Below are positions 5,297 to 64,000 of a DNA stretch of 64,000 bases, piece by piece. Position 1 is the first letter of the stretch. Each line of letters starts with the position of its first letter. Source of the DNA: Nitrospirota bacterium (GTDB lineage: Bacteria; Nitrospirota; UBA9217); contig DASPSR010000011.1 in NCBI GenBank assembly GCA_035623825.1, positions 1,791 to 65,790 on the forward strand, given 5' to 3'. Made by a program: the position numbers and the translations under genes. The notes under the pieces were generated by a model, which did no database searches, was not told the origin of the DNA, and was given only the letters and a program-made list of their open reading frames with translations.

Positions 5297-5308
5297 TCAT
5301 AAAAGTTT

Positions 5309-5366
5309 GCAGGTGATGGAGTTCGCCGTTAACCGCCTCTTTTATGGGGCTGATGACTCCTACTCT
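5309..5366 (+). promoter_or_regulatory. Fluoride riboswitch (crcB RNA motif) no. 1
   Basis: GGUGAUGGAGUUCGCC..UUAACCGCCUC-loop-GGGGCUGAUGACUCCUAC. P1 is GGUG/CGCC, P3 is GCCUC/GGGGC, pseudoknot is GGAGU/ACUCC. Matches the remembered crcB-motif consensus. crcB itself is in the operon. Confidence 0.85.
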
Positions 5367-5392
5367 CAATTTCATGAGGGCAGGAGTTTTTT
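5357..5392 (+). terminator. Intrinsic terminator forming the expression platform of riboswitch 1
   Basis: CTCCTACTCTC / GAGGGCAGGAG stem (one A.C mismatch) followed by TTTTTT. The 5' arm reuses the pseudoknot strand ACUCCUAC, so aptamer and terminator are mutually exclusive. Confidence 0.7.
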
Positions 5393-8182: not shown

Positions 8183-8200
8183 CGTTATCGCAGGCAAACA

Positions 8201-8260
8201 GCAGGTGATGGAGTTCACCATTAACCGTCCCGCGCATGCGGCGGGGCTGATGACTCCTAC
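8201..8260 (+). promoter_or_regulatory. Fluoride riboswitch (crcB RNA motif) no. 2
   Basis: GCAGGUGAUGGAGUUCACC.UUAACCGUCCCGC-GCAU-GCGGCGGGGCUGAUGACUCCUAC. Nearly identical core to no. 1. P1 carries a compensatory change (GGUG/CACC versus GGUG/CGCC). Confidence 0.85.
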
Positions 8261-8288
8261 TCTCGAAAGATGAGGGTAGGAGTTTTTT
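8254..8288 (+). terminator. Intrinsic terminator forming the expression platform of riboswitch 2
   Basis: CTCCTACTCTC / GAGGGTAGGAG forms an 11-bp stem followed by TTTTTT. It overlaps the aptamer 3' strand as in no. 1. Confidence 0.7.
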
Positions 8289-25669: not shown

Positions 25670-27046
25670 ATGAAAGAGTATGATGTCATTGTGATCGGCG
25701 CGGGTGTTGGTACGAGAATCGCCTTTAAAGCATTATCCGCAGGTTTGAAGGTCGCCTTGGTCGACAAAAGACATCCCGGCGGAACGTGTCTTAATACCGG
25801 CTGAGTGCCGTCCAAGACGCTGATCTATCCGGCGGATAGAATACAAGAAATCAAGGAAGCCCGGAAATTCGGGATAGAGGCTAAGATAACCCGCGTCAAT
25901 TTCCGATCCATCATGGAACGTATGAAGAAGGCAGTCACCTCCGGCCGGATGCAGTTGCGAAAAGCGATCAGGGATGCCAAGAACCTGGATTTTTACAATG
26001 AGGCGGCACACTTCAGCGGAGACTACACCCTTGAGTTATCGCGAGAAAAAATCAAAGGAAGAAAGATATTCGTAGCCGTAGGCTCTCGCCCCTTGATCCC
26101 CTCAGTGCCGGGCCTCGATATCGTCGGATATTTAACCAACGAAAGCGTACTGGAGCTGAAAAGTAGACCGAAGAGCATCATCATTATCGGCGGAGGGTAT
26201 ATCGGCGTCGAATACGGGCATTTTTTTTCGGCCATAGGCACAAAAGTGACGATCGTCGGAAGAAGCGAAGTCCTTGTCCCCGATGAAGATAGCGACGTAT
26301 CGTCGCTGCTGCAAAGAGAATTGAAAAAACGCATGGATGTCCATACCGGGATGATGGTTACCCGGGTCGAAAAAAGAGGCGGGAACGTGACGGTTTTCGC
26401 GCAGGACAAAAAGAGCGGCCAGAAGAAAAGATTTGCCGCCGAACGCGTCATGGTCGCAACGGGAAGAGTATCCAATGTCGATCTGCTAAAACCGGAAAAT
26501 ACCGGCGTTGCCATTGACGAGAGAAATTACATTAGAGTCGACGATCAACTCCAGACGAGCACAGAGAACATCTGGGCAGTCGGCGACGGTATTGGCAGGC
26601 AGATGTTCACGCACGCCGGGGACAAGGAGGCTGAGATCGCCTGGCATAATGCCACGCACGGCGAAAAAATAAAAATGGATTTTACAGCCGTGCCCCGCGT
26701 AATTTTCTCTCATCCGCAGATCGCGTCAGTGGGCCTGACGGAAGCGCAGGCGCGAAAGGACCATAACGTCCTTGTGGGAAGGGCACAGTACTCCGACATT
26801 GTGGCCGGTGACACCATGGCGGAAAAAGAGGGCTTCGCCAAGGTGATTGTGGAAAAAGGTTCCGAGAGGCTTCTCGGGTGCCATATGATCGGCCCCTATG
26901 CGTCTCACCTAATACAGGAAGCGGCGAACGTTATCGCTGACAGGGGAAGTGTAAATGCAATTACCGGCAAGATGCATGCGTTCCCGACGCTGCCGGAACT
27001 CATTCCCGAGGCGCTGGGGAACCTCGAAGGGAGCGGATCTGTTTGA
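25670..27046 (+). CDS. Class-I pyridine nucleotide-disulfide oxidoreductase (dihydrolipoyl dehydrogenase/mycothione reductase-like), probable selenoprotein
   Basis: ATG 25670. MKEYDVIVIGAGVG...GGTCLNTG-TGA(25802-25804)-VPSKTLI continues in frame into track ORF 25805-27046. The TGA sits at the second Cys of the redox CxxxxC motif. C-terminal HAFPTLPE His-Glu motif. Stem-loop at 25824-25840. Confidence 0.7.
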
Positions 27047-27865: not shown

Positions 27866-28642
27866 ATGCAAGAGAAGGGTGGCAATGAAATGGAACACGC
27901 CCGGAAGTACGGGCCTGAGAAACCTGCCGTACGTCGATGGACGGTGCGATCGATCATAGGCAGGGGTCTTCTCTATTGCCTGTTTCTCCTGATCGCCGCC
28001 GTTGCCCTCGGGGCGTATGAGCACTTCAAGCTTCGTGGGGAATCAACACAATCGCTCGTGAGCCTGCTGCTGGCGGCTGGCTTCGGGTTTGCACCGATAC
28101 GCGCCCTGGTGCGCGAGCTCTTCGTGATTGAAGGCAAGCTGCTGCACCTGGTGCACGGTGTCGGCGGGCTTGTGTTGGGCGCCTTGGTGCTGGGGGGTGT
28201 TGTTTCAGGCGGGCCGCTGCTGACCCGCGCTGCCCTTGCACCGTTCGCAATCATGGGTGCGGCGCAGGCGGTGATGCATCAGGATCACCCGCGTAACCCG
28301 CAGCAGGCCGAGGCGCTGCGACGTTTCGCGACGAGCCTGCCGGAGGTCGAGCAGTTCACGAAATCGGGGAATCTCACATCGCCTGAAAACGTGCGCCGAG
28401 CAGTCGCGGTTCTTAACGATCTGGTAAAGAAGGCGCAGGTGCTCGGTGAGACCGAGCTGCAATCCGATCCTGGTTTTCAAGGCGCGCTCAGGCGGGTCAC
28501 GACACGCTACGGGCTTTCTCTCGGGCTAGACGTGATTGACCGGGCGATAGCAGACCTGTCAGCGAACCCGGCAGCGGCGAGTGCAGTCCCAGAATTGCGC
28601 AATCGGCTCGCCAAAGCTCGCAAGGCACTCGGAGATGAATAG
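27866..28642 (+). CDS. Hypothetical membrane protein
   Basis: 258-aa ORF, visibly GC-richer than its flanks. Several hydrophobic helices then a helical soluble tail. Start uncertain. Confidence 0.5.
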   Translation: MQEKGGNEMEHARKYGPEKPAVRRWTVRSIIGRGLLYCLFLLIAAVALGAYEHFKLRGESTQSLVSLLLAAGFGFAPIRALVRELFVIEGKLLHLVHGVGGLVLGALVLGGVVSGGPLLTRAALAPFAIMGAAQAVMHQDHPRNPQQAEALRRFATSLPEVEQFTKSGNLTSPENVRRAVAVLNDLVKKAQVLGETELQSDPGFQGALRRVTTRYGLSLGLDVIDRAIADLSANPAAASAVPELRNRLAKARKALGDE

Positions 28643-28703: not shown

Positions 28704-29072
28704 ATGGAAAACAAGGAATTCGTATTTGTCATTACTCATTCATATGACGCCATAGAGCGGGCTGCCGCGGCTTTGCAGCTTGCAACTAATATGGCTGCTT
28801 TCGATGCAAAGATCGATTTTTTCCTGATTAATGAAGGTGTGTACCTAGCCAAGAAAGGCTTTGCCGAGTCAGTCACGTGGCAAAAAGGTTTCTCTCCCGT
28901 TGCAGACCTTATGAAAAGCCTGGTAGATGATTTTGACTGCAAATTCTACGTGTGCGCATCCTGCGTAAAGCCTTACGGGCTGGAGGGGACGGAATGGATC
29001 AAGAATGCCGAAGTCAAGCCGGGATCCTTTCTTGGCGAACTCCTTATGAAGAGGCAAAATGTGACATTCTGA
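28704..29072 (+). CDS. DsrE/DsrF-like family protein
   Basis: GGGAGGA RBS. FVFVITHS......A..AL.LA.......A.I.FFL.NEGV.L and FYVCASC pattern of the DsrE-fold family. Confidence 0.7.
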   Translation: MENKEFVFVITHSYDAIERAAAALQLATNMAAFDAKIDFFLINEGVYLAKKGFAESVTWQKGFSPVADLMKSLVDDFDCKFYVCASCVKPYGLEGTEWIKNAEVKPGSFLGELLMKRQNVTF

Positions 29073-29097
29073 AAGACTGAAAATACCTCATGAAAAA

Positions 29098-29124
29098 CAG
29101 ACCGTTTCTCGGTCTGTTTTTTTT
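29098..29124 (+). terminator. Intrinsic terminator
   Basis: CAGACC-gtttctc-GGTCTG followed by TTTTTTTT. Confidence 0.75.
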
Positions 29125-29218
29125 CGTTCTGTTCGTTTCCCCTCAACTCAGAATTTTACGTTGACAAATCCATAAAAACATAATAATCTTTGCATATATT
29201 ATCTGGAGGACGTCGCTT

Positions 29219-29560
29219 TTGCTCCCTGTTGAAAGTCGGCTTGAACTTCTCAAAGTAATCGCTCATCCCATCCGCATCAAGATACTCGAAGATCTGACCA
29301 AGGGCGTCAAATGCGTGAGCGACTTCGAGGAGGCTTTCGACATTAGCCAGCCAAACGTGTCTCAGCACTTGAAACTCCTTCGCTCGCACCATGTCGTCGA
29401 CTACTTTGTCGACGGAAGGCTCAAATGCTATTTCCTGAAGGAGCCGTTTATTCCTGATCTACTCGAACTTCTGAAGAAAGAATATAAAAGAGATATCCCG
29501 GCGCCGGCATGCTGCCCGGTAACAAAAAAAGGGACCTATCCTGGCGAAAGGAGACGTTAG
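29219..29560 (+). CDS. ArsR/SmtB-family transcriptional regulator (BigR/SqrR-like cysteine pattern)
   Basis: TTG start behind GGAGGA. LKVIAHPIRIKILEDL....KCVSDF......SQPNVSQHLKLLR wHTH. One Cys in helix 2 and a CC pair near the C-terminus. Confidence 0.8.
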   Translation: MLPVESRLELLKVIAHPIRIKILEDLTKGVKCVSDFEEAFDISQPNVSQHLKLLRSHHVVDYFVDGRLKCYFLKEPFIPDLLELLKKEYKRDIPAPACCPVTKKGTYPGERRR

Positions 29561-29659
29561 TAAATATGACTCGTTTTTCCCGGGGCGATCGCCGGAACGG
29601 CCGGAAAGATAGTATGTAAAAGCGGTGGTAGAGACGTCTGGTTATATGAGGAGGTTGCC

Positions 29660-30016
29660 ATGCCGAAAACTGTTACTCTGTATCTATCAACGTCGCCATA
29701 CTCCTACGAGAATACGCTTACGGCCGCCCGGATGGCAGAATCGGCCTTGAACAAAGGCCATCCCGTCAATCTCATCGCCTCGGCTGACGGAGTATACTGT
29801 TTCCTCACCAAGCAGAAAGCAAAAGGCATTCTAAATGCTGAGGAGGAATTCAGCCGCCTCATACAAAAGGGGCTGAAGGTGTATCTCTGAGGCGGGTGCC
29901 TCAACTTTCGCCGTGCGGCGAAGGAAGATTATCTTGCAGGAACGGAAGTCGGCTCTCTGAAGGGACTTTTCGAAACCATGGCTGAGACCGACGTGTGGGT
30001 CAATATCGGGGCATGA
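29660..30016 (+). CDS. DsrE/TusD-like sulfur-carrier subunit, probable selenoprotein
   Basis: Track ORF 29660-29890 ends ...GLKVYL-TGA(29888-29890). The frame stays open to TGA 30014-30016 (GGCLNFRRAAKEDYL...SLKGLFETMAETDVWVNIGA). The whole aligns to TusD/DsrE with the TGA at the active-site Cys (..LNICVAAALRRG..). 8-bp hairpin with GUGC loop at 29905-29924. Confidence 0.7.
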
Positions 30017-30028
30017 GAGGAGAAAAAT

Positions 30029-30382
30029 ATGGGAAGCGTTGCGATGATTCTGAAGCGATCTCCCTATGGCGACATCAATGCTGCCGAGGCCGTTCGGCAT
30101 GCGCTCGGCGCCATGTCTTTCGAGATGAACGTTGATCTGATCCTGGTGGACGGAGGCGTGCTGCTTGCGAAGAAGGGACAGGATGACAAAGGGACAGGAT
30201 TCACCAATCTTGAAGGCGCTCTCAAGGACTGCATCGATATGGGCGTAGCAGTCTACGCGGACGTTGCATCACTTAAAGCGCAAGGCGTTCCGGCAAATGA
30301 CCTGGCGGGAAACGTGAAGCTGGTCGGCGCGAAAGAGATCGCCGGGCTCATGAAAAAAGCAAAATCGACGATGATATTCTGA
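30029..30382 (+). CDS. DsrF/TusC-like subunit
   Basis: ILKRSPYG......A.R.ALGA......V.L.LV.DGV.L pattern. 117 aa. 12 nt after the preceding stop. Confidence 0.7.
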   Translation: MGSVAMILKRSPYGDINAAEAVRHALGAMSFEMNVDLILVDGGVLLAKKGQDDKGTGFTNLEGALKDCIDMGVAVYADVASLKAQGVPANDLAGNVKLVGAKEIAGLMKKAKSTMIF

Positions 30383-30392
30383 GGAGGCTCAT

Positions 30393-30674
30393 ATGATCGT
30401 GATGATAAAAAGCGGGCCGGACACGACAGACGGGGCGAGCGGTGTGACATTAGCAAAGGTGGGAGGGGCAGATATTGTGCTGTTGCAGAACGGGGTCTAT
30501 TTCGCGCGGAAAGATCGGCTCGGGCCGTTTGCAGGCGCGGTGTATGTCCTTGACGACGACAAGCGGCTCCGGGGTCTCAAGGATTCGGAGATGGACGCCC
30601 GCGTAAAAACCATCGACTACGACAAGCTGACCGATATTATTACAGGAGGCGAAAACGTGGTTGGAATGTTCTAA
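30393..30674 (+). CDS. DsrH/TusB-like subunit
   Basis: 93 aa. ...D.VLLQNGVYFA.....L......VYVL..D...RGL pattern of TusB/DsrH. Confidence 0.65.
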   Translation: MIVMIKSGPDTTDGASGVTLAKVGGADIVLLQNGVYFARKDRLGPFAGAVYVLDDDKRLRGLKDSEMDARVKTIDYDKLTDIITGGENVVGMF

Positions 30675-30700
30675 ACCGGCAGTAGAAGGGGGTGCATGCC

Positions 30701-31891
30701 ATGTCAAGGATCGTTGTGTTGGGGGGATCGTTTGGGGGGCTTACAGCGGCTCTTGAGCTGAAACGGCTGCTGGGCAAGAAAACTGACGTGACCTTGGCAA
30801 GCGACGACGATCGGTTCGTGTTCCTGCCGTCGCTGCCGTGGATTATTATGGGCTGGAGAAAGCCCGCGGACATCACGCTCAAGGTGAGCGAGATCCTGAA
30901 ACCGAAGGGGATCGAGTTTGTCCATGATACCGCACAGCAGATCGATGCTGATGCTTCCAAGGTAATCACTTCCAAGGGGAAAGAGCTTCCCTATGATTAT
31001 CTCGTGATTTCAACGGGACCCTATCTCGCCTTCGATGAAATTCCAGGTCTCGGACCCGACAAAGGATACACAGCCTGCACTTTCACCCTTGATCACGCGA
31101 TGAAGACCCAAGAAGCATGGAAAAAGGTCTTGGAAGACCCCGGCCCAATCGTGCTCGGTTCGTCTCAGATGGTGAGCTGCTTCGGCCCATCCTATGAGCT
31201 GGCTTTCGAAATGGATGCGGAACTGAGGCGGCGCAAGATGCGGCACAAGGTCCCGATCACCTATCTCACGTCGGAGCCTTTTCTGGGGCACATGGGCGTC
31301 GGAGGGCTCGGCAACTCGAAAATCTTTATCGAATACGAATTCGCCGAACGGGACATCAAGCCAATGGTGAGCCAGGCCATCCAGGAAGTTGCTCCTGGGG
31401 AGATCCGCCTGAAAGACGGGAATAAAATGCCGTTCAAGCTCGCCATGATAGCTCCACCGTTCAAAGGGGTGCCTGCCGTCATGCCGCTCGGCAATCCCCG
31501 TGGATTCATTCCAGTGGACAAGAACTACCGCCATACGAAACATAGAAATATCTTCGCCGTAGGCGTGGCTATGGCAATAGCTCCGCCAGAGGCGACACCG
31601 GTACCCACGGGCGTCCCGAAAACGGGATTTATGACCGTAAAAATGGCGAAGACCGCGGCCGCCACGATCGCCTCGGATGTTACCGGGGGGGCTGCAAAGC
31701 CGGGTGGCGAACTCGGCGTGGTCTGCCTCATGGACATGGGGAAAACCGCCGCGCTAATGAAGGCATATCCTGTTCTTCCGCCGAGGCAGAGCACCTATAT
31801 GAAGAAGGCGATCTGGGCGAAGTGGATGAAGGTTCGATTCGAGAAATATTTTCTCTGGAAGATGAAAATGGGGCTCAGCAATCTGCCGTGA
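30701..31891 (+). CDS. Sulfide:quinone oxidoreductase-like FAD-dependent disulfide reductase
   Basis: ATG 30701 behind GAAGGGGG. IVVLGGSFGGLTAALELKR dinucleotide fold. Cys motifs MVSCFGPSYELAFE and VVCLMDMGKTAA sit at the positions of the SQR redox cysteines (from memory). Confidence 0.75.
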   Translation: MSRIVVLGGSFGGLTAALELKRLLGKKTDVTLASDDDRFVFLPSLPWIIMGWRKPADITLKVSEILKPKGIEFVHDTAQQIDADASKVITSKGKELPYDYLVISTGPYLAFDEIPGLGPDKGYTACTFTLDHAMKTQEAWKKVLEDPGPIVLGSSQMVSCFGPSYELAFEMDAELRRRKMRHKVPITYLTSEPFLGHMGVGGLGNSKIFIEYEFAERDIKPMVSQAIQEVAPGEIRLKDGNKMPFKLAMIAPPFKGVPAVMPLGNPRGFIPVDKNYRHTKHRNIFAVGVAMAIAPPEATPVPTGVPKTGFMTVKMAKTAAATIASDVTGGAAKPGGELGVVCLMDMGKTAALMKAYPVLPPRQSTYMKKAIWAKWMKVRFEKYFLWKMKMGLSNLP

Positions 31892-44770: not shown

Positions 44771-44865
44771 ACAAATATAAATCCGTCAACACGTAACTCA
44801 TGTTCTCAATATTTTTTAGAAAAAAAAGGTTACGGTTAATTTAAATCCCTGAACACAAGATAACA

Positions 44866-44944
44866 CGATAAAGCCAAACCCTTCGCGAGAGGGGGACGGA
44901 AAGCGGCGGGTCTTAGAAGACAAAGATGGCCGAGCTGCCGAAGG
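44866..44944 (+). promoter_or_regulatory. GEMM-I (c-di-GMP-I class) riboswitch aptamer no. 1
   Basis: AAAGCCAAACC-CUUC-GCGA(GNRA)-GAGGGG-GACGGAAAGC-GGCGGG..hairpin..GGCCGAGCUGCCGAAGG. Matches the remembered GEMM-I consensus (GCAAACC..GNRA..GGGACGCAAAGCC....GCUGCC). Confidence 0.7.
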
Positions 44945-46576: not shown

Positions 46577-46665
46577 TCAATTATCTGTCTGTTACCACAT
46601 TACTCGATATTCTGAAAATTTTTCAGAATAAAATGCACTTCGTTCCACCTGAACACATGATGGCC

Positions 46666-46744
46666 CGATAAAGCCAAACCCTTCGCGAGAGGGGTGCGGA
46701 AAGCGGCGGGTCTTAGAAGACTAAGACGGCCGAGCTGCCGAAGG
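46666..46744 (+). promoter_or_regulatory. GEMM-I riboswitch aptamer no. 2
   Basis: Same core as no. 1. The internal helix GUCUUAG/CUAAGAC is perfectly paired. Confidence 0.7.
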
Positions 46745-53739: not shown

Positions 53740-53832
53740 GGATCCCGATAAAGCCAAACCCTTTGCAAGAGGAGCGGAAAGCGGCGGATCTTAAAAAACA
53801 AAGATGGCCGAGCTGCCGAAGGCTAAGATCCC
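53740..53832 (+). promoter_or_regulatory. GEMM-I riboswitch aptamer no. 3 (more divergent)
   Basis: AAAGCCAAACC-CUUU-GCAA(GNRA)-GAGG..GCGGAAAGCGGCGG..GGCCGAGCUGCCGAAGG. Closing helix GGAUC/GAUCC. No terminator follows. Confidence 0.6.
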
Positions 53833-56327: not shown

Positions 56328-59300
56328 ATGTACTCTAACCAGCAGGTCTGGAAGTCGGGAAGTTTCCTTATGGCCCTGACGGCATGCGGATCCAGGCTCG
56401 GGTTCCCGTTACTGCTCCTCTTCGCCCTGTCCATGGCCGCCGCCCGCGGCTCAGATGCGGCTGAGGCCATGTGCTCCCAATTCGGCGGTGTCGTCGACGG
56501 CAACAACCCCGCCACCTACGCAGCAATACAAAATGCCTCCACGTTCGGGATCGACATGGATTGCACGATCAAGAACTTCCCGTTGTCCGTGGGCGGCTTC
56601 CCGGTCAAGAACATCAACTTCCACTTCCCGAAGCAGCAATCATACCACATCGATTTCCTGAACGTCTACTACGGTGGCCATATGGCATGCGCCGACCCGA
56701 CCCACTCGACCTTCTGGATATACTGGGGACCAGGCAGCTTCGATAATATCTGCCACGAATGCCAGTCGCACTTTGTGCCCGTCGAGGCAGTGCAAAAGAA
56801 GGACCCCCCGAACCAGACCACCGCAACCATTGGAGCACCCTTCACCTATACGATCGTGGCGCCGCTGCTCGGCAATCTGGACTCATCGGGGTCCTTCCAC
56901 TATGTTAAGACCAGCGATGACGCCACCGTAACGAATGTGGTAATTACTGACGACCTCACGACGACAGGCGCCTCCCTCACCTACGTGACGAACACCGCCT
57001 ACATGGTGAACGCCGCTACCGGCGCAAGAACCCCGATAAACGGAGGCGCACCCCTCAAGCTCGGTGCGAGCGGCACCTGGCTCGCCAGCCACCCAGGGGT
57101 CCTGTCCGATTCCACCAAGCATTTAATATTCTCCTATGAGTATAATCCCGCCCTGGCGTCCATCCCTGCAGGGTACAACGTCGAAATAGACCTTACGGTC
57201 GTCCTCGACGACAGCCCGGCAAACAAGGCGCAGACGCAGTTTAAGAACACCGCAAACATGTGGTTCGGCAAGACGATCAAGGGGACGGTCATGACCGACC
57301 TCCAGGCCGAGCCCGGCACTACTCCGCCCATGACGATCGCCGAGCCCAATCTCGTTGTCACGAAGAAGAGCTCGGTTTCGAACCTCTCCGTGGGGTCCAA
57401 AGCGCCCTTCAGCATAAACGTCCAGAACGTGGGCGGATCAGACACGTGGAACGCGACGATCACCGACAACATCCCAGCCGGCATGTGCGCCTATGACCTA
57501 AGGCCCACGGTGACCGCAGAGGTCTATGCCGCTGACGGCGTCACACCGGTCTCGGGACCGCTCGTTCCCGGCACCGACTTTTTGGTCACCTGGAACGGCG
57601 GCACGCCGTCTGCCTGCCAGATGAGCCTTGCCATGCAGACACCGAAGGCCAAGATCGGGCCAACCCAGCGCCTGATTATAAACTACCAGGCTATGCTCGA
57701 TAGCGGGATCTCTTCCGGAACGTTTACCAACGTAGCAGGCGCCACCCGCTGGTTCAGCGCCGACAGTTCCTCGGCTGTCCACCGTGAATACGACAGGACG
57801 CTTACCAACGGCACGCCGGGGATCATTGATTTCCAGGATGCCTTTACCGTAACGGCCACCACTTCCAACTATTACTTACTTAAATCGGTCGAAGACTTGA
57901 CGACCGGGGCATACCCGCCCACCTCGGCCTTCCCGGGCGACAAGCTGAGGTATACGCTCGAACTCCAGAACTTCACAACCACCTCTCTTAACAGCGTCAA
58001 GGTCACCGACGATCTTGGCGCCTTGAACGGATTTTCCGCCTTCGTCCCGGGCTCGCTCTCCCTTGCTGGAACCAACCTTCCAGCGGGAACCTACACTGTA
58101 TGCCCCGCGTGCGGCACCAACGGGGCAGGCACTGTAACAATAAACAACCTTACGTTGGGCCCCAATGCACAGTACCAGATCCAGTTCGACGTTACCCTAG
58201 CAGGGAGCATCGCCAACGGCGCTATCGTCAGGAACCAGGCAGGCCTGGCCGGCACCGATTCTAACAACAAATCATGGTCCGGCGTCAGCGATGACCCGTA
58301 CGTGAACGGGCCGTCGCCCCTTAGCGGGACGGGCGATATCACCGCCGTCACGGTGCAGGTGCCAGGCGCACTGTCGAAAACCTCGCCGACACCTTCGACT
58401 GCGACCATCGGTCAGCAGTATAGCTACACGATCACGGTGCCGGCAGCCCCGGCCAAGGCCCCCCTGTACGACGTACGCATCCTTGACAGCCTCCCGCCCA
58501 ACGTGACCTTTGTCAGCGCCTCTGTGGTCTCCGGAGGAACCTGGAACGTCATCAATACAGGCACCGGTTCCAACCTCATCCTTCAGGACTCAGGTACTGG
58601 CATCGACATCCCCGCGGGCGGCCAAGCCGTCATCAGGGTAACCGTGGCCGTCATGAACACCGCTACGAACATAAACGGCGTTTCGTTCATAAACAGCGCG
58701 TCGTATACCCATAACAAACGCAAAGGATGCGGCGGTACGACTACAGTGACCGGCGGTTCGGGAAACAGCACGCCCATGACGGTCGTCGAGCCGCACCTCA
58801 CCATCACGAAAACGGTGAGCTACTTTTCGCCATCCGGCAAACTGGCCACCAGCCCGGCCGCTGCTGGCGACGTTCTTCAATACGCAGTCACTTTGACCAA
58901 TGACGGTACTTCAACCGCGTATGATTCGGACGTCATCGACACGCTGCCGGCGAACGTAGCGCTTGTTCCCGGTTCCGCAGCTGCACAGATCAACGGTTCC
59001 CCGGTAGTTGGTTTTATTTCGAATCCGGCGCTGCTCTCCGGCGGCTCGCTCGATTGGGGCAGCGCAAATGGCGACGGCAGCCTCACTATACCCGTGAACG
59101 GGAAGCTCGTATTGACGTTCCAGGCGAAGGTGCTGTCGGTTGACGGCACGCCGTTCGGCAACACCGCTTATACGGCATGGACATCGCTGTCAGGCAGTGC
59201 TTCCGGCGAGCGCACCGGCGCCGGCTGCCCGAACATCACTCAGCCCAACAACTATTGTTCCGGCCCTGCCACCGCCACCATCTCATCTCAGGATCCCACG

Positions 59301-62300
59301 ACCATTTTCAAATCAGTGGTCTCCGACACCTGGAACAGCGGGCTCAGCACCGCTACTGATTCAACGCTTCGCATAGGCGACACCGTCGTTTACAGTCTTT
59401 CATTGACCTTCCGTTCCGGGACGACCCAGAACGTTGTGGTCACCGATACTCTCCCCGCAGGACTCTCCTATGACAGCCTGGTGTCCATCACTCCAGCTTC
59501 GGGCGGGAGCCTCACTTACGCCGTTTCATCCCAGCCGTCTCAGGGTGCCACCGGGGCCTTGACCTGGAATCTCGGGAACGTCTCCAATGTATCAGGCGGC
59601 AGTGCTGCCAGCAACATCCTGACCATCCAGTACCGGGCAAAGGTAATCAAGAACACCCTTGCACAGACGCCTGTGAAACAGATTTTGACCAACAACGCTT
59701 CAGTGAGCTACGCGATTAACAGCATAGCCGCATCTCCTAAGACATCAAGCGCCTCTCTCAATATATGGCAGCCGATGCTCGGCGTGTCCAAGAGCGCCGC
59801 CCCTGCGGCCGGGGGCACCAGTGTCAGCGCAGGCGATCTCATCACCTATACCATATACATCGCGAACACCGGCGCGTCTCCGGCATATGATCCCGTGCTC
59901 ACCGACACGCTGCCCGCGGGACTCCGCCAGAACGGCGTTACCACCACCGGCGTTTCACTCGTCAATACCGCCACGAAAGCCGTGGTTTCAACACTTCCCG
60001 TTCCCGCGTCGCCGTACTTCTCTTATAACCCCGCCACCGGCGTCGCCTCCTGGAACTTCGACACGGGCGTTGCCAATGCCTACAGCATCCCGCCGGGCGA
60101 TACCCTTCAGGTGGTCTACCAGGTCAAGGCGGACAGCACCTTAGGGTCCGGAACTCCCCTGGTCAATAACACCCTTGTCCAGCATTACTACTCCCTGGAC
60201 AGCATCGATGTGCCGGCAAACAGCGTTGTCGCCGACAGGCAGGTTTACGGCCCGACCTCCGCAGCGACCGTCCAGCTGACCAGCGCCTCTGCGTCAGCGC
60301 TTTCTGCGCTTTCGAAGCAGGCCCTGGTGTCCACCGCTGCGCTCGGTCAGCCCTTCACCTACCGCATCACGGTCCCCGCTCAGCATTCGTCTACGGCGAT
60401 CTATAATGTTCAGGTCACAGACGATATGAGCCTTGCCGCGACCGGCGTGTCTCTTAACTACGTGGCCGCAACCGCTCGCCTTGCGTCAGGGACCAAGTCC
60501 TGGTCTTCTCTTACCAATTCAGGGACCTCAACGAATCTGGTACTGGCGGACACGGCAAGCGGCGGACTTTATGTTCCAGCCGGCGACCAGCTTATCATGG
60601 ATGTCACCGTGGTGCTGGCAAACGACACAACGAACAATACCATCGGGAAACAATTCACCAACACGGCGAACTACAAATACAACAAGGCAAGCGGCGATAA
60701 CACCACGGGTGCTGCTGGCGCCCCAGGATCGAGCTCCCCGGTCACCATCGTTGGCCCCAACTTGACCCTGACGAAGACCGGCCCAAGCACCATGGGCGCC
60801 GGTACGCCAGGCACCTTCACGCTTAATATTCAGAATGCCGGATCCTCCTCTGCATGGAATACGACCATAACAGACATCCTTCCCAACGTGACCGGGCCTG
60901 CTAAGGGCGGCATGTGCGGCCAGGCTCCGGCGAACATCACTGCCCGCATTTACCAGCCGGACGGCGTCACGCCAGTCTCTTCTCCTTTGGTAAGCGGCAC
61001 GGACTTCACCGCTTCCTTCACGGGCACGCCGGCCTGCACTCTGACGATCACTACGAAGTCGACGGCAGCCACGGCCATTGCGCCGGCAAACCGGCTGATA
61101 ATCACGTATCAAGCTTCTCTCGACCAGGGCACAGCAGGGGGTCTCGCCCTCACCAACATTGCGGGCGCGACGAGTTACCAGAGCGCCGACCCCTCGGCCA
61201 CGGGCGCATCGGGGAACGTGCATACCACCATGAACACCTTGACGAACGGTACGCCTGGAATACTGGACTTCCAGGACGCCTTCACGGTAAACACCCAGTC
61301 GACCGTCCTTACCTTCACCAAGACCGCATTCGATGTGACCACCGGCCAGTCAGGCGCCACCGCAAGGCCTGGCGATACACTCAAATATACGCTTACGGTC
61401 CAGAACACAGGCACTCTTGCCGCCTCCGGCCTATCGCTTACGGACGAGCTTGACAGGCTGAACCAGACCGCCATGTTCGTTCCCGGAACCCTGACACTCA
61501 CGGCAGTCCCTGTGGGCGCCATCGTTTCTCAGACAACCGGGACAAAGGGCACCGGCATGATAAGCATTGGAAACCTCAATATCGATGCCCAGGGAGGGGC
61601 CAACGACAAGCTGGTGGTCGAGTTTACGGCCAGGCTCCTGCCCGCAATCAACAGCGGCACAAAGGTCCTGAACCAGGGACAGATCGGCTCTTCTCTCTCA
61701 AGCAACGACCCGTCCCAGGGCGGTACCGCCAATCCGACACAAACGACCATCGTCTCGGCACCGGTCTTCCGTGTACAGAAGACGGTACAGGATCTGACAT
61801 CGGGCACCTCGACAGTCACTGCGGGGGACACCTTGAGGTACACCATCAAGGTGAACAACATCGGCTCGGAGAACGCCGTGGGCGTGACTCTCAGGGACCT
61901 CGTCCCGGCTAATACCTCCTATGTCGCGGGCTCCACGACCCTCAACGGAGCGGCAGTGGCGGACATCAGCGCAGGTGTCAGTCCTCTTCAGAACGGCATG
62001 CCGATCAATACCCGGTCAAACCTGACGCCGGGCGCCATGCCTGCGGATGCCACTGCCTCCGCCGCCAATACTGCAACCGTCACATTCGACGTCAAGATCA
62101 GCGTAAGCGTGGTGAACGGCACCATGATTTCCAACCAGGGCTTCGTGGACGGCTCCGGAGCGGGGAGCGGTCCGGCCCCCGAACAGCCTTCAGGCGACCC
62201 GAACAATCCTGTGCCGAACAGTCCGACCTCGGTCGTCGTGGGGAATCTGCCGCTCCTCACTGCGCAGAAGACCGTCAAGCTCTCCGTGGACAATAACGGG

Positions 62301-64000
62301 AACGGCCTCGTTGACCCGGGCGACGTTATCCGTTACACCATCACCCTGACGAACTCTGCCGCGACGCCTGCCTCCGGCGTCGTTCTTACCGATGTCGTCC
62401 CTGCCAACACGACCTACGTTTCGAACAGCACTACGTTAAACGGCAGTGCCGTAGCCGATGCCGGCGCAGGCGTGTCCCCCCTGGCCTCCGGCATGTCCGT
62501 CGTTTCCACCGGCCCTACGCAGAGTTCTTCGCCGTCCGGCGGCACCGTGGCCGCAAACAGCACCGGGACCATCACCTTTGACGTCCGGGTCAACGCCGGC
62601 GTAGCCCCAGGAACGATCATCTGTAACCAGGGCACAGTGGCAGCAACCGGTCTTACAAACCTTTTGACCGACTCCGACGGCAATCCTGCCAACGGCTACC
62701 AGTCGACCTGCATCACTGTCGGGAACGCCCAACAGCTTACCGTTACCAAGACATATGCCGTGGTGGGAGGAGGTGTGCCGCTTCCCGGAAGCATCGTCGA
62801 GTATACCGTCACCGCAACCAATATCGGCACGGTCCCGGCCACTGGCGTGGTGATCACGGATGATCTTTCCTCGATCCTGGCGCAAGCCTCCTATGTCGCC
62901 GGCTCTGCGGCCATGAACGGGTCGGCAAACGGCGTCAACTTCGCATCACCGGTGATCACAGCGAACTACGGCGTCACCTACGGTTCCCTGGCTCCTGGCG
63001 GAACAGTCGTACTCCGCTTCCGCGTCAAATTAAACACGACGGCTCCTACCGGCACCGCCGTCACCAATACCGCCCAGGCGGCCTGGAACACTCCGCAGCA
63101 GACGACGACGTCAAGCGTCACCCTCAGTTTCGGTTCACAGCCGGGAAGCTTCTCCGGCCGCGCATGGCAGGACTCCAACTTCAACAAAGCGTTCGACAGC
63201 GGGGAGCAGCCGTTCTCCGGGTGGGCGGCGGATATCTACAAGGACGGCCAGATAATAGGCACCGCATACACGGCTTCCGACGGAACGTACCAGATAAGCG
63301 GCCTCGCCCCCAATGCCGGTACTACGAGCACGTATGAGATCCGATTCCGCGCCCCAGGCGCCGGAGCCAACACGGCCATGCTGGGATGGGGCGATTCTCC
63401 GTTCACCAACGGCATGCAGCGGATATCGAACATCGTCCTTGCCTCGGGAGGAAGCCTTGCGAACCTGAACCTCCTGCTGACCCCCAACGGCGTAGTCTAC
63501 GATTCCATCGCACGGACGCCGATTATGGGCGCCGCGCTTACCATGCTTCAGGCATCTACCAAGTCGCCGCTTCCCGCAAGCTGTTTTAACGACCCGGCAG
63601 CGCAGGGCCAGGTAACGCTTCCAGGCGGGTTTTACAAGTTCGACCTGAACTTCAGCGACGCGTCCGCCTGCCCGTCAGGCGGCGATTATCTGATCCAGGT
63701 CATGCCTCCCGCATCAGGATACATTGCCGGCCTGTCGAAACTGATACCGCCGACGTCAAGCGCCTCGACCGCGACGTTCTCGGTCCCGACCTGCCCCGGC
63801 GGCCCGGCCGACGCAGTGCCTGCAACTTCTGCCTATTGCGAGGCTCAGGCTTCCGTCCTGCCTCCGGCAGCCTCGGTGCCCGCCGGACATGGCACTGCCT
63901 ATTACCTGCATCTTACGTTCGATAACGCGAGGCCGGGGGACAGCCAGATCTACAACAACCATATCGCCATCGATCCCGTGCAGAATAACGCGATCGCCAT
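56328..64000 (+). CDS. Giant secreted repeat adhesin (DUF11/conserved-repeat and SdrD-B/Cna-B-like modules), 3'-partial
   Basis: Frame 0 is open from ATG 56328 to the window end (at least 2557 codons). It is absent from the ORF track because no stop is reached. Signal-like N-terminus. Many (T/S)Y(T/R)I.V.N.G...A..V.(L/V)TD.LP modules. FSGRAWQDSNFNKAFDSGEQPFSGW..DGTYQISGL is SdrD-B-like. All track ORFs here lie in other frames or are antisense. Confidence 0.85.
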   Translation, partial: MYSNQQVWKSGSFLMALTACGSRLGFPLLLLFALSMAAARGSDAAEAMCSQFGGVVDGNNPATYAAIQNASTFGIDMDCTIKNFPLSVGGFPVKNINFHFPKQQSYHIDFLNVYYGGHMACADPTHSTFWIYWGPGSFDNICHECQSHFVPVEAVQKKDPPNQTTATIGAPFTYTIVAPLLGNLDSSGSFHYVKTSDDATVTNVVITDDLTTTGASLTYVTNTAYMVNAATGARTPINGGAPLKLGASGTWLASHPGVLSDSTKHLIFSYEYNPALASIPAGYNVEIDLTVVLDDSPANKAQTQFKNTANMWFGKTIKGTVMTDLQAEPGTTPPMTIAEPNLVVTKKSSVSNLSVGSKAPFSINVQNVGGSDTWNATITDNIPAGMCAYDLRPTVTAEVYAADGVTPVSGPLVPGTDFLVTWNGGTPSACQMSLAMQTPKAKIGPTQRLIINYQAMLDSGISSGTFTNVAGATRWFSADSSSAVHREYDRTLTNGTPGIIDFQDAFTVTATTSNYYLLKSVEDLTTGAYPPTSAFPGDKLRYTLELQNFTTTSLNSVKVTDDLGALNGFSAFVPGSLSLAGTNLPAGTYTVCPACGTNGAGTVTINNLTLGPNAQYQIQFDVTLAGSIANGAIVRNQAGLAGTDSNNKSWSGVSDDPYVNGPSPLSGTGDITAVTVQVPGALSKTSPTPSTATIGQQYSYTITVPAAPAKAPLYDVRILDSLPPNVTFVSASVVSGGTWNVINTGTGSNLILQDSGTGIDIPAGGQAVIRVTVAVMNTATNINGVSFINSASYTHNKRKGCGGTTTVTGGSGNSTPMTVVEPHLTITKTVSYFSPSGKLATSPAAAGDVLQYAVTLTNDGTSTAYDSDVIDTLPANVALVPGSAAAQINGSPVVGFISNPALLSGGSLDWGSANGDGSLTIPVNGKLVLTFQAKVLSVDGTPFGNTAYTAWTSLSGSASGERTGAGCPNITQPNNYCSGPATATISSQDPTTIFKSVVSDTWNSGLSTATDSTLRIGDTVVYSLSLTFRSGTTQNVVVTDTLPAGLSYDSLVSITPASGGSLTYAVSSQPSQGATGALTWNLGNVSNVSGGSAASNILTIQYRAKVIKNTLAQTPVKQILTNNASVSYAINSIAASPKTSSASLNIWQPMLGVSKSAAPAAGGTSVSAGDLITYTIYIANTGASPAYDPVLTDTLPAGLRQNGVTTTGVSLVNTATKAVVSTLPVPASPYFSYNPATGVASWNFDTGVANAYSIPPGDTLQVVYQVKADSTLGSGTPLVNNTLVQHYYSLDSIDVPANSVVADRQVYGPTSAATVQLTSASASALSALSKQALVSTAALGQPFTYRITVPAQHSSTAIYNVQVTDDMSLAATGVSLNYVAATARLASGTKSWSSLTNSGTSTNLVLADTASGGLYVPAGDQLIMDVTVVLANDTTNNTIGKQFTNTANYKYNKASGDNTTGAAGAPGSSSPVTIVGPNLTLTKTGPSTMGAGTPGTFTLNIQNAGSSSAWNTTITDILPNVTGPAKGGMCGQAPANITARIYQPDGVTPVSSPLVSGTDFTASFTGTPACTLTITTKSTAATAIAPANRLIITYQASLDQGTAGGLALTNIAGATSYQSADPSATGASGNVHTTMNTLTNGTPGILDFQDAFTVNTQSTVLTFTKTAFDVTTGQSGATARPGDTLKYTLTVQNTGTLAASGLSLTDELDRLNQTAMFVPGTLTLTAVPVGAIVSQTTGTKGTGMISIGNLNIDAQGGANDKLVVEFTARLLPAINSGTKVLNQGQIGSSLSSNDPSQGGTANPTQTTIVSAPVFRVQKTVQDLTSGTSTVTAGDTLRYTIKVNNIGSENAVGVTLRDLVPANTSYVAGSTTLNGAAVADISAGVSPLQNGMPINTRSNLTPGAMPADATASAANTATVTFDVKISVSVVNGTMISNQGFVDGSGAGSGPAPEQPSGDPNNPVPNSPTSVVVGNLPLLTAQKTVKLSVDNNGNGLVDPGDVIRYTITLTNSAATPASGVVLTDVVPANTTYVSNSTTLNGSAVADAGAGVSPLASGMSVVSTGPTQSSSPSGGTVAANSTGTITFDVRVNAGVAPGTIICNQGTVAATGLTNLLTDSDGNPANGYQSTCITVGNAQQLTVTKTYAVVGGGVPLPGSIVEYTVTATNIGTVPATGVVITDDLSSILAQASYVAGSAAMNGSANGVNFASPVITANYGVTYGSLAPGGTVVLRFRVKLNTTAPTGTAVTNTAQAAWNTPQQTTTSSVTLSFGSQPGSFSGRAWQDSNFNKAFDSGEQPFSGWAADIYKDGQIIGTAYTASDGTYQISGLAPNAGTTSTYEIRFRAPGAGANTAMLGWGDSPFTNGMQRISNIVLASGGSLANLNLLLTPNGVVYDSIARTPIMGAALTMLQASTKSPLPASCFNDPAAQGQVTLPGGFYKFDLNFSDASACPSGGDYLIQVMPPASGYIAGLSKLIPPTSSASTATFSVPTCPGGPADAVPATSAYCEAQASVLPPAASVPAGHGTAYYLHLTFDNARPGDSQIYNNHIAIDPVQNNAIA

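Follow-up and report, generated by a model that had tools for sequence, protein, structure and literature searches.

We analyzed a 64,000-nucleotide (nt) stretch of DNA, hereafter called the window, from a Nitrospirota bacterium (UBA9217; assembly GCA_035623825.1, contig DASPSR010000011.1). Between positions 28704 and 31891 it holds six genes, all on the plus strand, as are the other genes, open frames, and operon features of the window described below, which encode a stand-alone DsrE-fold protein, an ArsR-family regulator, DsrE-, DsrF-, and DsrH-like proteins (E, F, and H), and a sulfide:quinone reductase (SQR). The stand-alone gene (28704 to 29072; 122 amino acids [aa]) carries a CxxC motif (VCASC), matches PF02635 with 54.7 bits, and is closed by an intrinsic-terminator-like hairpin (29092 to 29122) consisting of a 13-pair stem and a T-run. 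A promoter-like element, TTGACA-17-TAATCT (29161 to 29189, with the feature extending to 29199), precedes arsR (29219 to 29560), which starts with TTG, has GGAGGA 8 nt upstream, and encodes a 113-aa winged-helix repressor of the ArsR/SmtB family. After a gap of 99 nt follows the dsrE-like gene (29660 to 30016; 118 aa), which matches PF02635 with 56.4 bits across an in-frame TGA (29888 to 29890). The genes for the DsrF/TusC-like subunit (30029 to 30382; 117 aa; PF02635, 63.8 bits), the DsrH/TusB-like subunit (30393 to 30674; 93 aa; PF04077, 35.5 bits against a cutoff of 24.4), and the SQR (30701 to 31891; 396 aa) come next, separated by spacers of only 12, 10, and 26 nt. Thus, three adjacent genes encode DsrE, DsrE (in F), and DsrH folds, all with Pfam scores above the cutoffs. 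The ATG at 30701 is the likely start of the SQR, and the resulting 396 aa match the length of its homologues. An earlier reading of this DNA from its letters alone (the sequence-only reading) had described the same layout, with the stand-alone gene ending in its own terminator and the last four genes 9 to 26 nt apart; all genes were found where it had placed them, with spacers of the size it gave.

The sequence-only reading had also taken these genes as a single operon and proposed a survey of gene neighborhoods. We fetched 80 species-level loci using the SQR protein as a query, nearly all of which came from metagenome-assembled genomes of Nitrospirota. The order arsR-E-F-H-SQR, with the Sec form of dsrE described below, recurs in 58 of the 80 loci, and three further loci are cut at contig ends; such an arrangement is far beyond chance. 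F is syntenic in about 60 loci. No terminator-like site was found inside the operon, and the genes make up a single conserved, co-directional, and tightly spaced cluster behind a conserved arsR promoter and operator. The 58 loci fall into two E/F subtypes (VYL-U-GGC and VDI-U-TGC), which are about 40 to 48% identical to each other, while ArsR, H, and SQR remain 75 to 88% identical across loci whose E/F subtypes differ (e.g., L022 and the window). The E-F pair thus seems to have been swapped as a cassette. The stand-alone DsrE-fold gene lies outside the conserved cluster, since none of the 80 loci has it near the SQR gene (tblastn). Profile comparison (hhalign) matched its product to the Sec-DsrE profile with 90% probability and aligned CASC on UGGC, by which it is classed as a Cys-type paralogue of the Sec-DsrE. 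Immediately 5' of this gene we observed a 258-aa open reading frame (ORF) at 27866 to 28642, which matches no family and for which no copy was found close to SQR in the related loci.

The in-frame TGA corresponds to residue 77 of E and lies in the sequence L-U-G-G-C (residues 76 to 80), in which U is selenocysteine (Sec), giving Sec77-x-x-Cys80. The codon at this position is TGA in 58 of 58 loci regardless of the E/F subtype, and neither subtype shows any variation in U-x-x-C. Furthermore, the 41 codons 3' of the TGA are conserved in frame, with G79, C80, R84, D90, S99, L100, K101, F104, and N115 invariant. A hairpin resembling a selenocysteine insertion sequence (SECIS) is located at 29905 to 29924 and has an 8-bp stem and a GUGC loop, the loop G being 23 nt past the UGA. 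In both subtypes the hairpin starts 14 to 15 nt past the UGA and the loop (GUGC or GUCU) lies 23 nt past it; the hairpin sequence differs between the subtypes and the geometry is equal. Subtype B, with the GUCU loop, shows two compensatory pairs, and the subtype A hairpin is conserved with wobble changes only and no compensatory pairs. Rfam at gathering scores gave no SECIS family match in the window, and a shuffle test on the 66 nt after the UGA was not significant when taken alone (z = -1.63), so that what speaks for the hairpin is that it is conserved and keeps a constant position.

A Cys form of E (CGTC, 54% identical) is present in another Nitrospirota family, and the 120 best public homologues of E all cover only the 76 residues before the UGA, most of them being exactly 76 aa long. 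E therefore combines the features of the DsrE-like UxxC selenoproteins, i.e., the PF02635 fold, an in-frame UGA within UxxC followed by a SECIS-type hairpin, conservation of both in homologues, and Cys-form homologues. This family was predicted as a redox selenoprotein of unknown function in 2005 by Zhang, Fomenko, and Gladyshev (PMC1088965) and is still listed without a function (PMC13188914); as far as the accessible text of these two papers goes, F/H partners and an SQR or ArsR context are not mentioned. Taking together the conserved TGA, the in-frame conservation downstream, the hairpin, the presence of selB in relatives, the in-frame TGAs of selD and of a flavoprotein gene in the same genome (described below), and the Cys form, we conclude that Sec is the sole reasonable reading of the TGA and that the dsrE-like gene very probably encodes a selenoprotein, as the sequence-only reading had supposed.

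The gene selD was found in the window's assembly, itself with one in-frame TGA, on another contig beside an ORF with a DsrE domain. In five of five cluster-bearing genomes selB scored over the cutoff. Among 31 sampled genomes (30 relatives and the window's own), selB was over the cutoff in 22, and the TGA-form gene (one TGA inside the match) was detected in 13, 11 of which had selB over the cutoff. Elsewhere in the window, a gene at 25670 to 27046 encodes a flavoprotein similar to dihydrolipoamide dehydrogenase and mercuric reductase with the sequence GGTCLNTGU-VPSK, in which a TGA (25802 to 25804) replaces the second redox Cys; a small hairpin is located about 22 nt downstream of this TGA.

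We then compared the trio with known DsrE systems. A profile built from 18 E orthologues found YchN as the best solved relative (E value, 1.6e-6), followed by weaker matches to TusC, DsrE, and DsrF of solved complexes. Sec77 aligns with Cys78 of DsrE (2hy5_A; a weak match, with an E value of 0.034), the sulfur-binding residue, and with the CxxC of YchN; the placement of Sec at the Cys78 position is well supported. The second Cys of UxxC has no counterpart in canonical DsrE in the profile alignment. The trio shares with DsrEFH and TusBCD the adjacent small genes in E-F-H order, the Pfam DsrE/DsrE/DsrH domains, and a reactive residue at the Cys78 position, but differs in having Sec plus Cys in UxxC, scores below the family cutoffs, an H without a conserved Cys, and a location beside sqr and arsR rather than beside dsrAB/dsrC or tus genes. 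Because the Pfam folds match, the equivalog scores miss, YchN is closest, and H has no Cys, the trio appears to form a divergent complex of the DsrEFH type that belongs to the CxxC (YchN/YedF-like) branch and has Sec for its nucleophile; judged from the same scores, it is not orthologous to DsrEFH or TusBCD. A complex prediction with F and H alone (score, 0.02; mark, 0.34) gave no verdict and is no evidence either way.

Another divergent trio, DsrEFH type II (the YTD cluster), has been described in bacteria with reductive dsrAB, including Nitrospirota, and proposed to allow sulfur oxidation; it occurs with tusA and yeeE, uses Cys67, a residue conserved in 99.3% of its sequences, and goes unrecognized by sequence models (PMC13293266; PMC13047784). 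Both are divergent DsrEFH-like trios in dsrAB-bearing Nitrospirota, whereas the trio described here is recognized by Pfam, uses Sec, and stands beside sqr. We rejected identity with DsrEFH type II, as the operon has neither tusA nor yeeE and its nucleophile is Sec instead of Cys67.

The flavoprotein encoded by the last gene aligned over residues 3 to 396 with the type I SQR structures from Aquifex aeolicus and Acidithiobacillus ferrooxidans (E values of 3.9e-96 for 3hyv_A and 4.5e-96 for 3sy4_A), and it is 45% identical to bona fide SQRs. The GxGxxG, VSCFGPSYE, and VCLMDMG (VVCLMDMG in the window) motifs align, and Cys160 and Cys342 fall on the catalytic positions (Cys160 and Cys356 of A. ferrooxidans), with the cysteines conserved in 74 to 76 of 76 orthologues and the two essential ones invariant. 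Two conserved differences were observed: the third cysteine (Cys126) stands two residues before its usual position, with Phe at the position of Cys128 in the A. ferrooxidans enzyme (Cys124 in that of A. aeolicus), and the protein ends about 25 to 30 residues before the solved type I enzymes, without the last C-terminal helix region. Matches to SQRs of other types and to flavocytochrome c were far weaker, and the sole NCBIfam SQR model, which describes a type III selenoprotein subtype, was missed by a wide margin. The homologues are likewise 396 aa long and carry the JGI name sulfide:quinone oxidoreductase. Thus, strong homology identifies the SQR-like flavoprotein of the sequence-only reading as a type I-like SQR with a flavin adenine dinucleotide (FAD) fold and both catalytic cysteines, and sulfide:quinone reductase activity is predicted.

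The regulator matches HTH_5 (43.3 bits) and the NCBIfam model NF033788 (69.6 bits against a cutoff of 55), and its four cysteines, Cys32, Cys70, Cys98, and Cys99, are invariant in 58 orthologues. BigR of Xylella and Agrobacterium and SqrR of Rhodobacter capsulatus are ArsR-family repressors of sulfide oxidation genes that act via cysteine chemistry, with a sensing pair in alpha2 and alpha5 (C42/C108 in BigR and C41/C107 in SqrR). The regulator described here resembles them as a cysteine-bearing ArsR-family repressor at sulfide oxidation genes, but its cysteines are located in alpha3, the wing, and a C-terminal CC pair. Cys32 aligns with Cys61 of SmtB (the alpha3 site) and with a Ser of BigR, the position of BigR Cys42 is occupied by Glu24, and that of SqrR Cys107 lies near Tyr89, about 10 residues before the CC pair. 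Besides, the BigR model NF040642 gave 46.2 bits against a cutoff of 155. We therefore rejected membership in the BigR/SqrR group, which the sequence-only reading had assumed; because of the different cysteine positions and the low score, the regulator belongs to a separate ArsR subfamily, and "BigR/SqrR-like" describes its role by analogy and nothing more.

Of the arsR upstream regions compared across the 58 loci, most contain TTGACA and then ATGCAAAyAT-N4-ATrTTTGCAT, an almost perfect palindrome overlapping the -10 box. The window retains an intact right arm (TAATAATCTTTGCAT, 29181 to 29195, likewise overlapping the -10 box) beside a degenerate left arm, and a repeat search of this promoter found no exact inverted repeat, the palindrome being clear in the relatives only. 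Since the conserved palindrome covers the -10 box of the arsR promoter, it fits an autoregulated repressor, and we regard it as a candidate operator, of which TAATAATCTTTGCAT would be a half-site.

The association of the trio with SQR was further examined through variant loci. In a genome of another Nitrospirota family (G033; locus L100, contig G033:C304, 2757 to 5937), ArsR is followed by a Cys-form DsrE (CGTC), DsrF, two DsrH, and a type III-like SQR, which is nonorthologous and only 27.6% identical to that of the window; this is a single case. The trio is absent in four loci that have a Sec-rhodanese between arsR/tauE and sqr (L049, L050, and L088, which were read through, and L065, known from the gene map only). 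The Sec-rhodanese has an N-terminal signal peptide and a TGA in the active-site loop (VVI-U-MFDKRS), and it accompanies the trio in at least L051 (5422 to 5871). Frequent accessories in the related loci are TauE, rhodanese, YeeE, and further DsrE-fold proteins; the last are a 106-aa CGTC protein (10 loci) and a 140-aa PF13686 protein, and in the window the stand-alone CASC protein. Desulfobacterota orthologues of the SQR keep arsR without the trio, sometimes with the CGTC protein instead. Downstream of SQR, 41 related loci (e.g., L082:8241-10553) have a second arsR, the 140-aa PF13686 DsrE-like protein, and a 770-aa MMPL/RND transporter, sometimes with a small secreted protein, a rhodanese, and YeeE, and then a LolA-like protein and a 430-aa protein without a family; all of these downstream genes are absent from the window.

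What recurs is an ArsR repressor together with an SQR and an acceptor of the sulfurtransferase type, which is the logic of the cst and yrk operons. The cst operon of Staphylococcus aureus and the yrk cluster of Bacillus licheniformis combine a thiol-based repressor, a DsrE-type carrier (a domain of CstA; YrkE), and SQR, often with TauE and rhodanese, and are induced by sulfide or sulfane sulfur (PMC9918477). Rhodaneses also occur in sqr-pdo operons, according to the accessible part of one report (PMC9163753). The operon described here shares with cst and yrk the thiol-type repressor, the DsrE-type carrier, SQR, and the TauE and rhodanese accessories. It differs in that their repressors (CstR and YrkD) are CsoR-like and not ArsR proteins, and their carriers are Cys proteins, single or fused, and not an E/F/H trio. 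Moreover, they include an oxygen-dependent persulfide dioxygenase, whereas none was seen in any of the loci examined here, as expected for anaerobes.

Our preferred reading, which we hold with a little more confidence than doubt, is that the locus is a sulfide-handling operon of an anaerobic, dsrAB-carrying member of the Nitrospirota (dsrAB is present in the window's genome), consisting of a thiol-based repressor, an SQR, and a Sec-DsrEFH-like acceptor of sulfane sulfur. It would correspond to the cst and yrk operons but work independently of oxygen. The ArsR protein, through its four invariant cysteines a candidate thiol switch, would bind the palindrome over the -10 box of its own promoter and silence arsR-dsrE(U)-dsrF-dsrH-sqr, and derepression would follow thiol modification, most likely by per- or polysulfide. 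The SQR, as expected from its homologues, would oxidize HS- via FAD, pass electrons to the quinone pool, and leave sulfane sulfur on its active-site cysteines. E, F, and H may assemble into a cytoplasmic carrier of the DsrEFH type, in which Sec77 would accept this sulfur from SQR as an Se-S adduct with Cys80 as its partner. Sec is a stronger nucleophile than Cys at neutral pH. The Sec carrier would thereby fill, without oxygen, the role that a rhodanese or a persulfide dioxygenase plays in aerobic sqr operons. The sulfur might subsequently be transferred to DsrC/DsrAB or exported, and Cys80 might be a partner in an Se-S(n)-S bridge or the resolving residue of a reductase.

Several observations weigh against this reading. 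The periplasmic side of the membrane is the usual assignment for type I SQRs, E, F, and H are without signal peptides, and the operon has no transporter gene. The trio missed the NCBIfam equivalog cutoffs for TusD, TusC, and TusB (E, 18.1 against 89.25 bits; F, TIGR03010, 40.3 against 94.15 bits; H, TIGR03011, 34.2 against 49.2 bits), and the best solved relative of E, YchN, is of unknown function. The DsrH-like protein contains no cysteine, nor does any column of the H alignment hold a conserved Cys, such as the Cys20 of Allochromatium vinosum DsrH. The UxxC motif is as suggestive of redox chemistry as of simple persulfide carriage, and the alpha3 Cys together with the vicinal CC pair of the regulator resembles As(III) and metal sites of other ArsR proteins. 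In about 17 to 20 of the 80 loci (L077, L082, and L093, and among others L023, L031, L036, L047, L050, L065-L067, and L088), selD stands inside or beside the cluster, a possible link to selenium; a gene for a TauE/SafE permease usually comes after it. Finally, selA, selB, and tRNA-Sec were not found in the window's assembly, which is 89.65% complete and consists of 67 contigs. We read this absence as an assembly gap, because the assembly is incomplete and is also without full-length tuf genes, which every relative shows in the same search. Short tuf starts at the ends of contigs C21 and C63 suggest collapsed or unassembled regions.

The redox character of UxxC raises the alternative that the Sec-DsrEFH-like complex is a redox enzyme, i.e., a persulfide or polysulfide reductase or trimmer, and that the operon is a stress valve limiting the sulfane sulfur made by SQR without feeding dissimilatory sulfur metabolism. 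The invariance of U-x-x-C in both subtypes accords with this, as the motif is listed as the redox motif of the family (PMC1088965; PMC13188914), and canonical DsrE is without the second Cys. CxxC paralogues accompany the cluster (the stand-alone DsrE of the window and the CGTC protein of 10 loci), the CLNTGU flavoprotein, a disulfide reductase homologue, is encoded 2.6 kb upstream, and genes related to it (30 to 31% identical; Sec/Cys status not checked) lie near the cluster in L046 and L067. However, turning the SQR product back into sulfide would amount to futile cycling, relay complexes are characterized by F and H subunits and by the E-F-H gene order, and no partner supplying reductant is encoded within the operon; we thus consider a redox enzyme unlikely.

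We also weighed whether the regulator senses a metal or metalloid, such as As(III), Sb(III), or Cd/Pb, instead of sulfane sulfur. Its Cys32 occupies the alpha3 position of ArsR/SmtB/CadC-type sites, vicinal Cys pairs in the tail are typical of As(III)-sensing ArsR variants, and its best NCBIfam match is a generic metalloregulator model. None of the 58 loci, however, has an ars, czc, or other metal resistance gene in the cluster, the regulated genes all concern sulfur or selenium handling, and the arsR-sqr linkage persists in the Desulfobacterota loci without the trio, which makes a metal sensor unlikely.

A role in selenium handling deserves attention on account of selD. In L077 (3829 to 4878), L082, and L093, this gene is inserted between arsR and tauE-dsrE(U)FH-sqr, as confirmed by family scans for L077 and L093, and the selD of L077 itself contains Sec (SSCAGUAAK). 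About 14 further loci have a selD-like ORF, often paired with tauE, at most 7 kb downstream; one representative of this group was scanned and has AIRS domains, and the others were grouped with it by sequence. Although the loci are related, such adjacency is far beyond chance for a single-copy gene, and it may reflect the operon's own need for Sec only or a module that also handles selenium. In the latter case, the SQR-type enzyme would oxidize selenide, the Sec-DsrEFH-like proteins and, in relatives, the Sec-rhodanese would carry selenium to or from SelD, and the regulator would sense selenium species. SQR-related oxidoreductases are known as fusions with SelD (TIGR03169, 61 bits to the window's SQR), the accessible part of a preprint reports that human SQOR oxidizes selenide (bioRxiv 10.1101/2023.04.13.535674), and the selenium-associated YedF has a DsrE-like domain with CGxC (PMC5322559), comparable to UGGC here, to which the match is weak. 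On the other hand, the enzyme is far closer to bona fide SQRs than to the SelD-fused family, selD of the window's genome is on a different contig, and the adjacency elsewhere may reflect just the supply of Sec. In addition, TauE and rhodanese are standard companions in sulfide operons (PMC9918477), and the hosts are sulfur-cycling bacteria with dsrAB. A dedicated selenium module is quite improbable in our view.

That the TGA is a true stop, leaving a truncated or dead dsrE-like gene and an untranslated downstream frame, is extremely improbable and was rejected, since the missing selA, selB, and tRNA-Sec and the public gene callers that end the protein at residue 76 are outweighed by a TGA whose position is shared by 58 of 58 loci of two subtypes, the 41 conserved codons with invariant residues behind it, the hairpin at a fixed distance, Cys homologues aligned at the Sec position, selB in relatives carrying the gene, and the incompleteness of an assembly in which even tuf is fragmentary.

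Returning to the sulfide-handling operon that we favor, its narrower form would make the Sec-DsrEFH-like complex the dedicated, oxygen-independent acceptor of SQR sulfane sulfur in anaerobic Nitrospirota, feeding DsrC/DsrAB. We put this extension forward tentatively and regard it as rather doubtful at present.

The window contains other features apart from the operon. Two fluoride riboswitches (5303 to 5369 and 8195 to 8266) and three c-di-GMP-I-type riboswitches (44864 to 44943, 46664 to 46743, and 53743 to 53820) scored over the Rfam gathering thresholds. An open frame of more than 2,557 aa (56328 to 63998) runs off the end of the window, within a stretch whose G+C content is clearly raised (0.58 to 0.62, compared with about 0.48).

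The sequence-only reading did not recognize the combination of genes as a described pathway, and we likewise found no paper describing the operon; full-text searches of the literature found none on F/H partners, SQR pairing, or ArsR control of the UxxC DsrE family. The general kind of operon is not new, because this family has been known since 2005 and operons with a repressor, a DsrE-type carrier, and SQR are already known in Firmicutes (PMC9918477); the variant with a Sec-containing trio is new. A survey of Nitrospirota stated that most Thermodesulfovibrionia "possess dsrFH, but no dsrE" (PMC11033732). The "missing" dsrE is present and encoded with selenocysteine. Because the reactive residue is specified by TGA, gene callers shorten the gene and the carrier looks absent in these bacteria, and since the Sec dsrE is cut at the UGA, metabolic reconstructions in which dsrEFH serves to indicate sulfur oxidation are biased for this group of Nitrospirota.

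Our results offer a candidate function and candidate partners for a family of selenoproteins that has lacked both since 2005. If the transfer of sulfur from SQR to the trio is true, it would explain how the SQR product is removed in anaerobes with no recourse to persulfide dioxygenase or glutathione, and it would link sulfide oxidation in aquifers and sediments to the supply of selenium. If the complex indeed feeds DsrC/DsrAB, this would be the first dissimilatory sulfur relay with a selenoprotein at its core, and the "sulfate reducers" with dsrFH and seemingly no dsrE would own a complete selenium-dependent route of sulfide oxidation.

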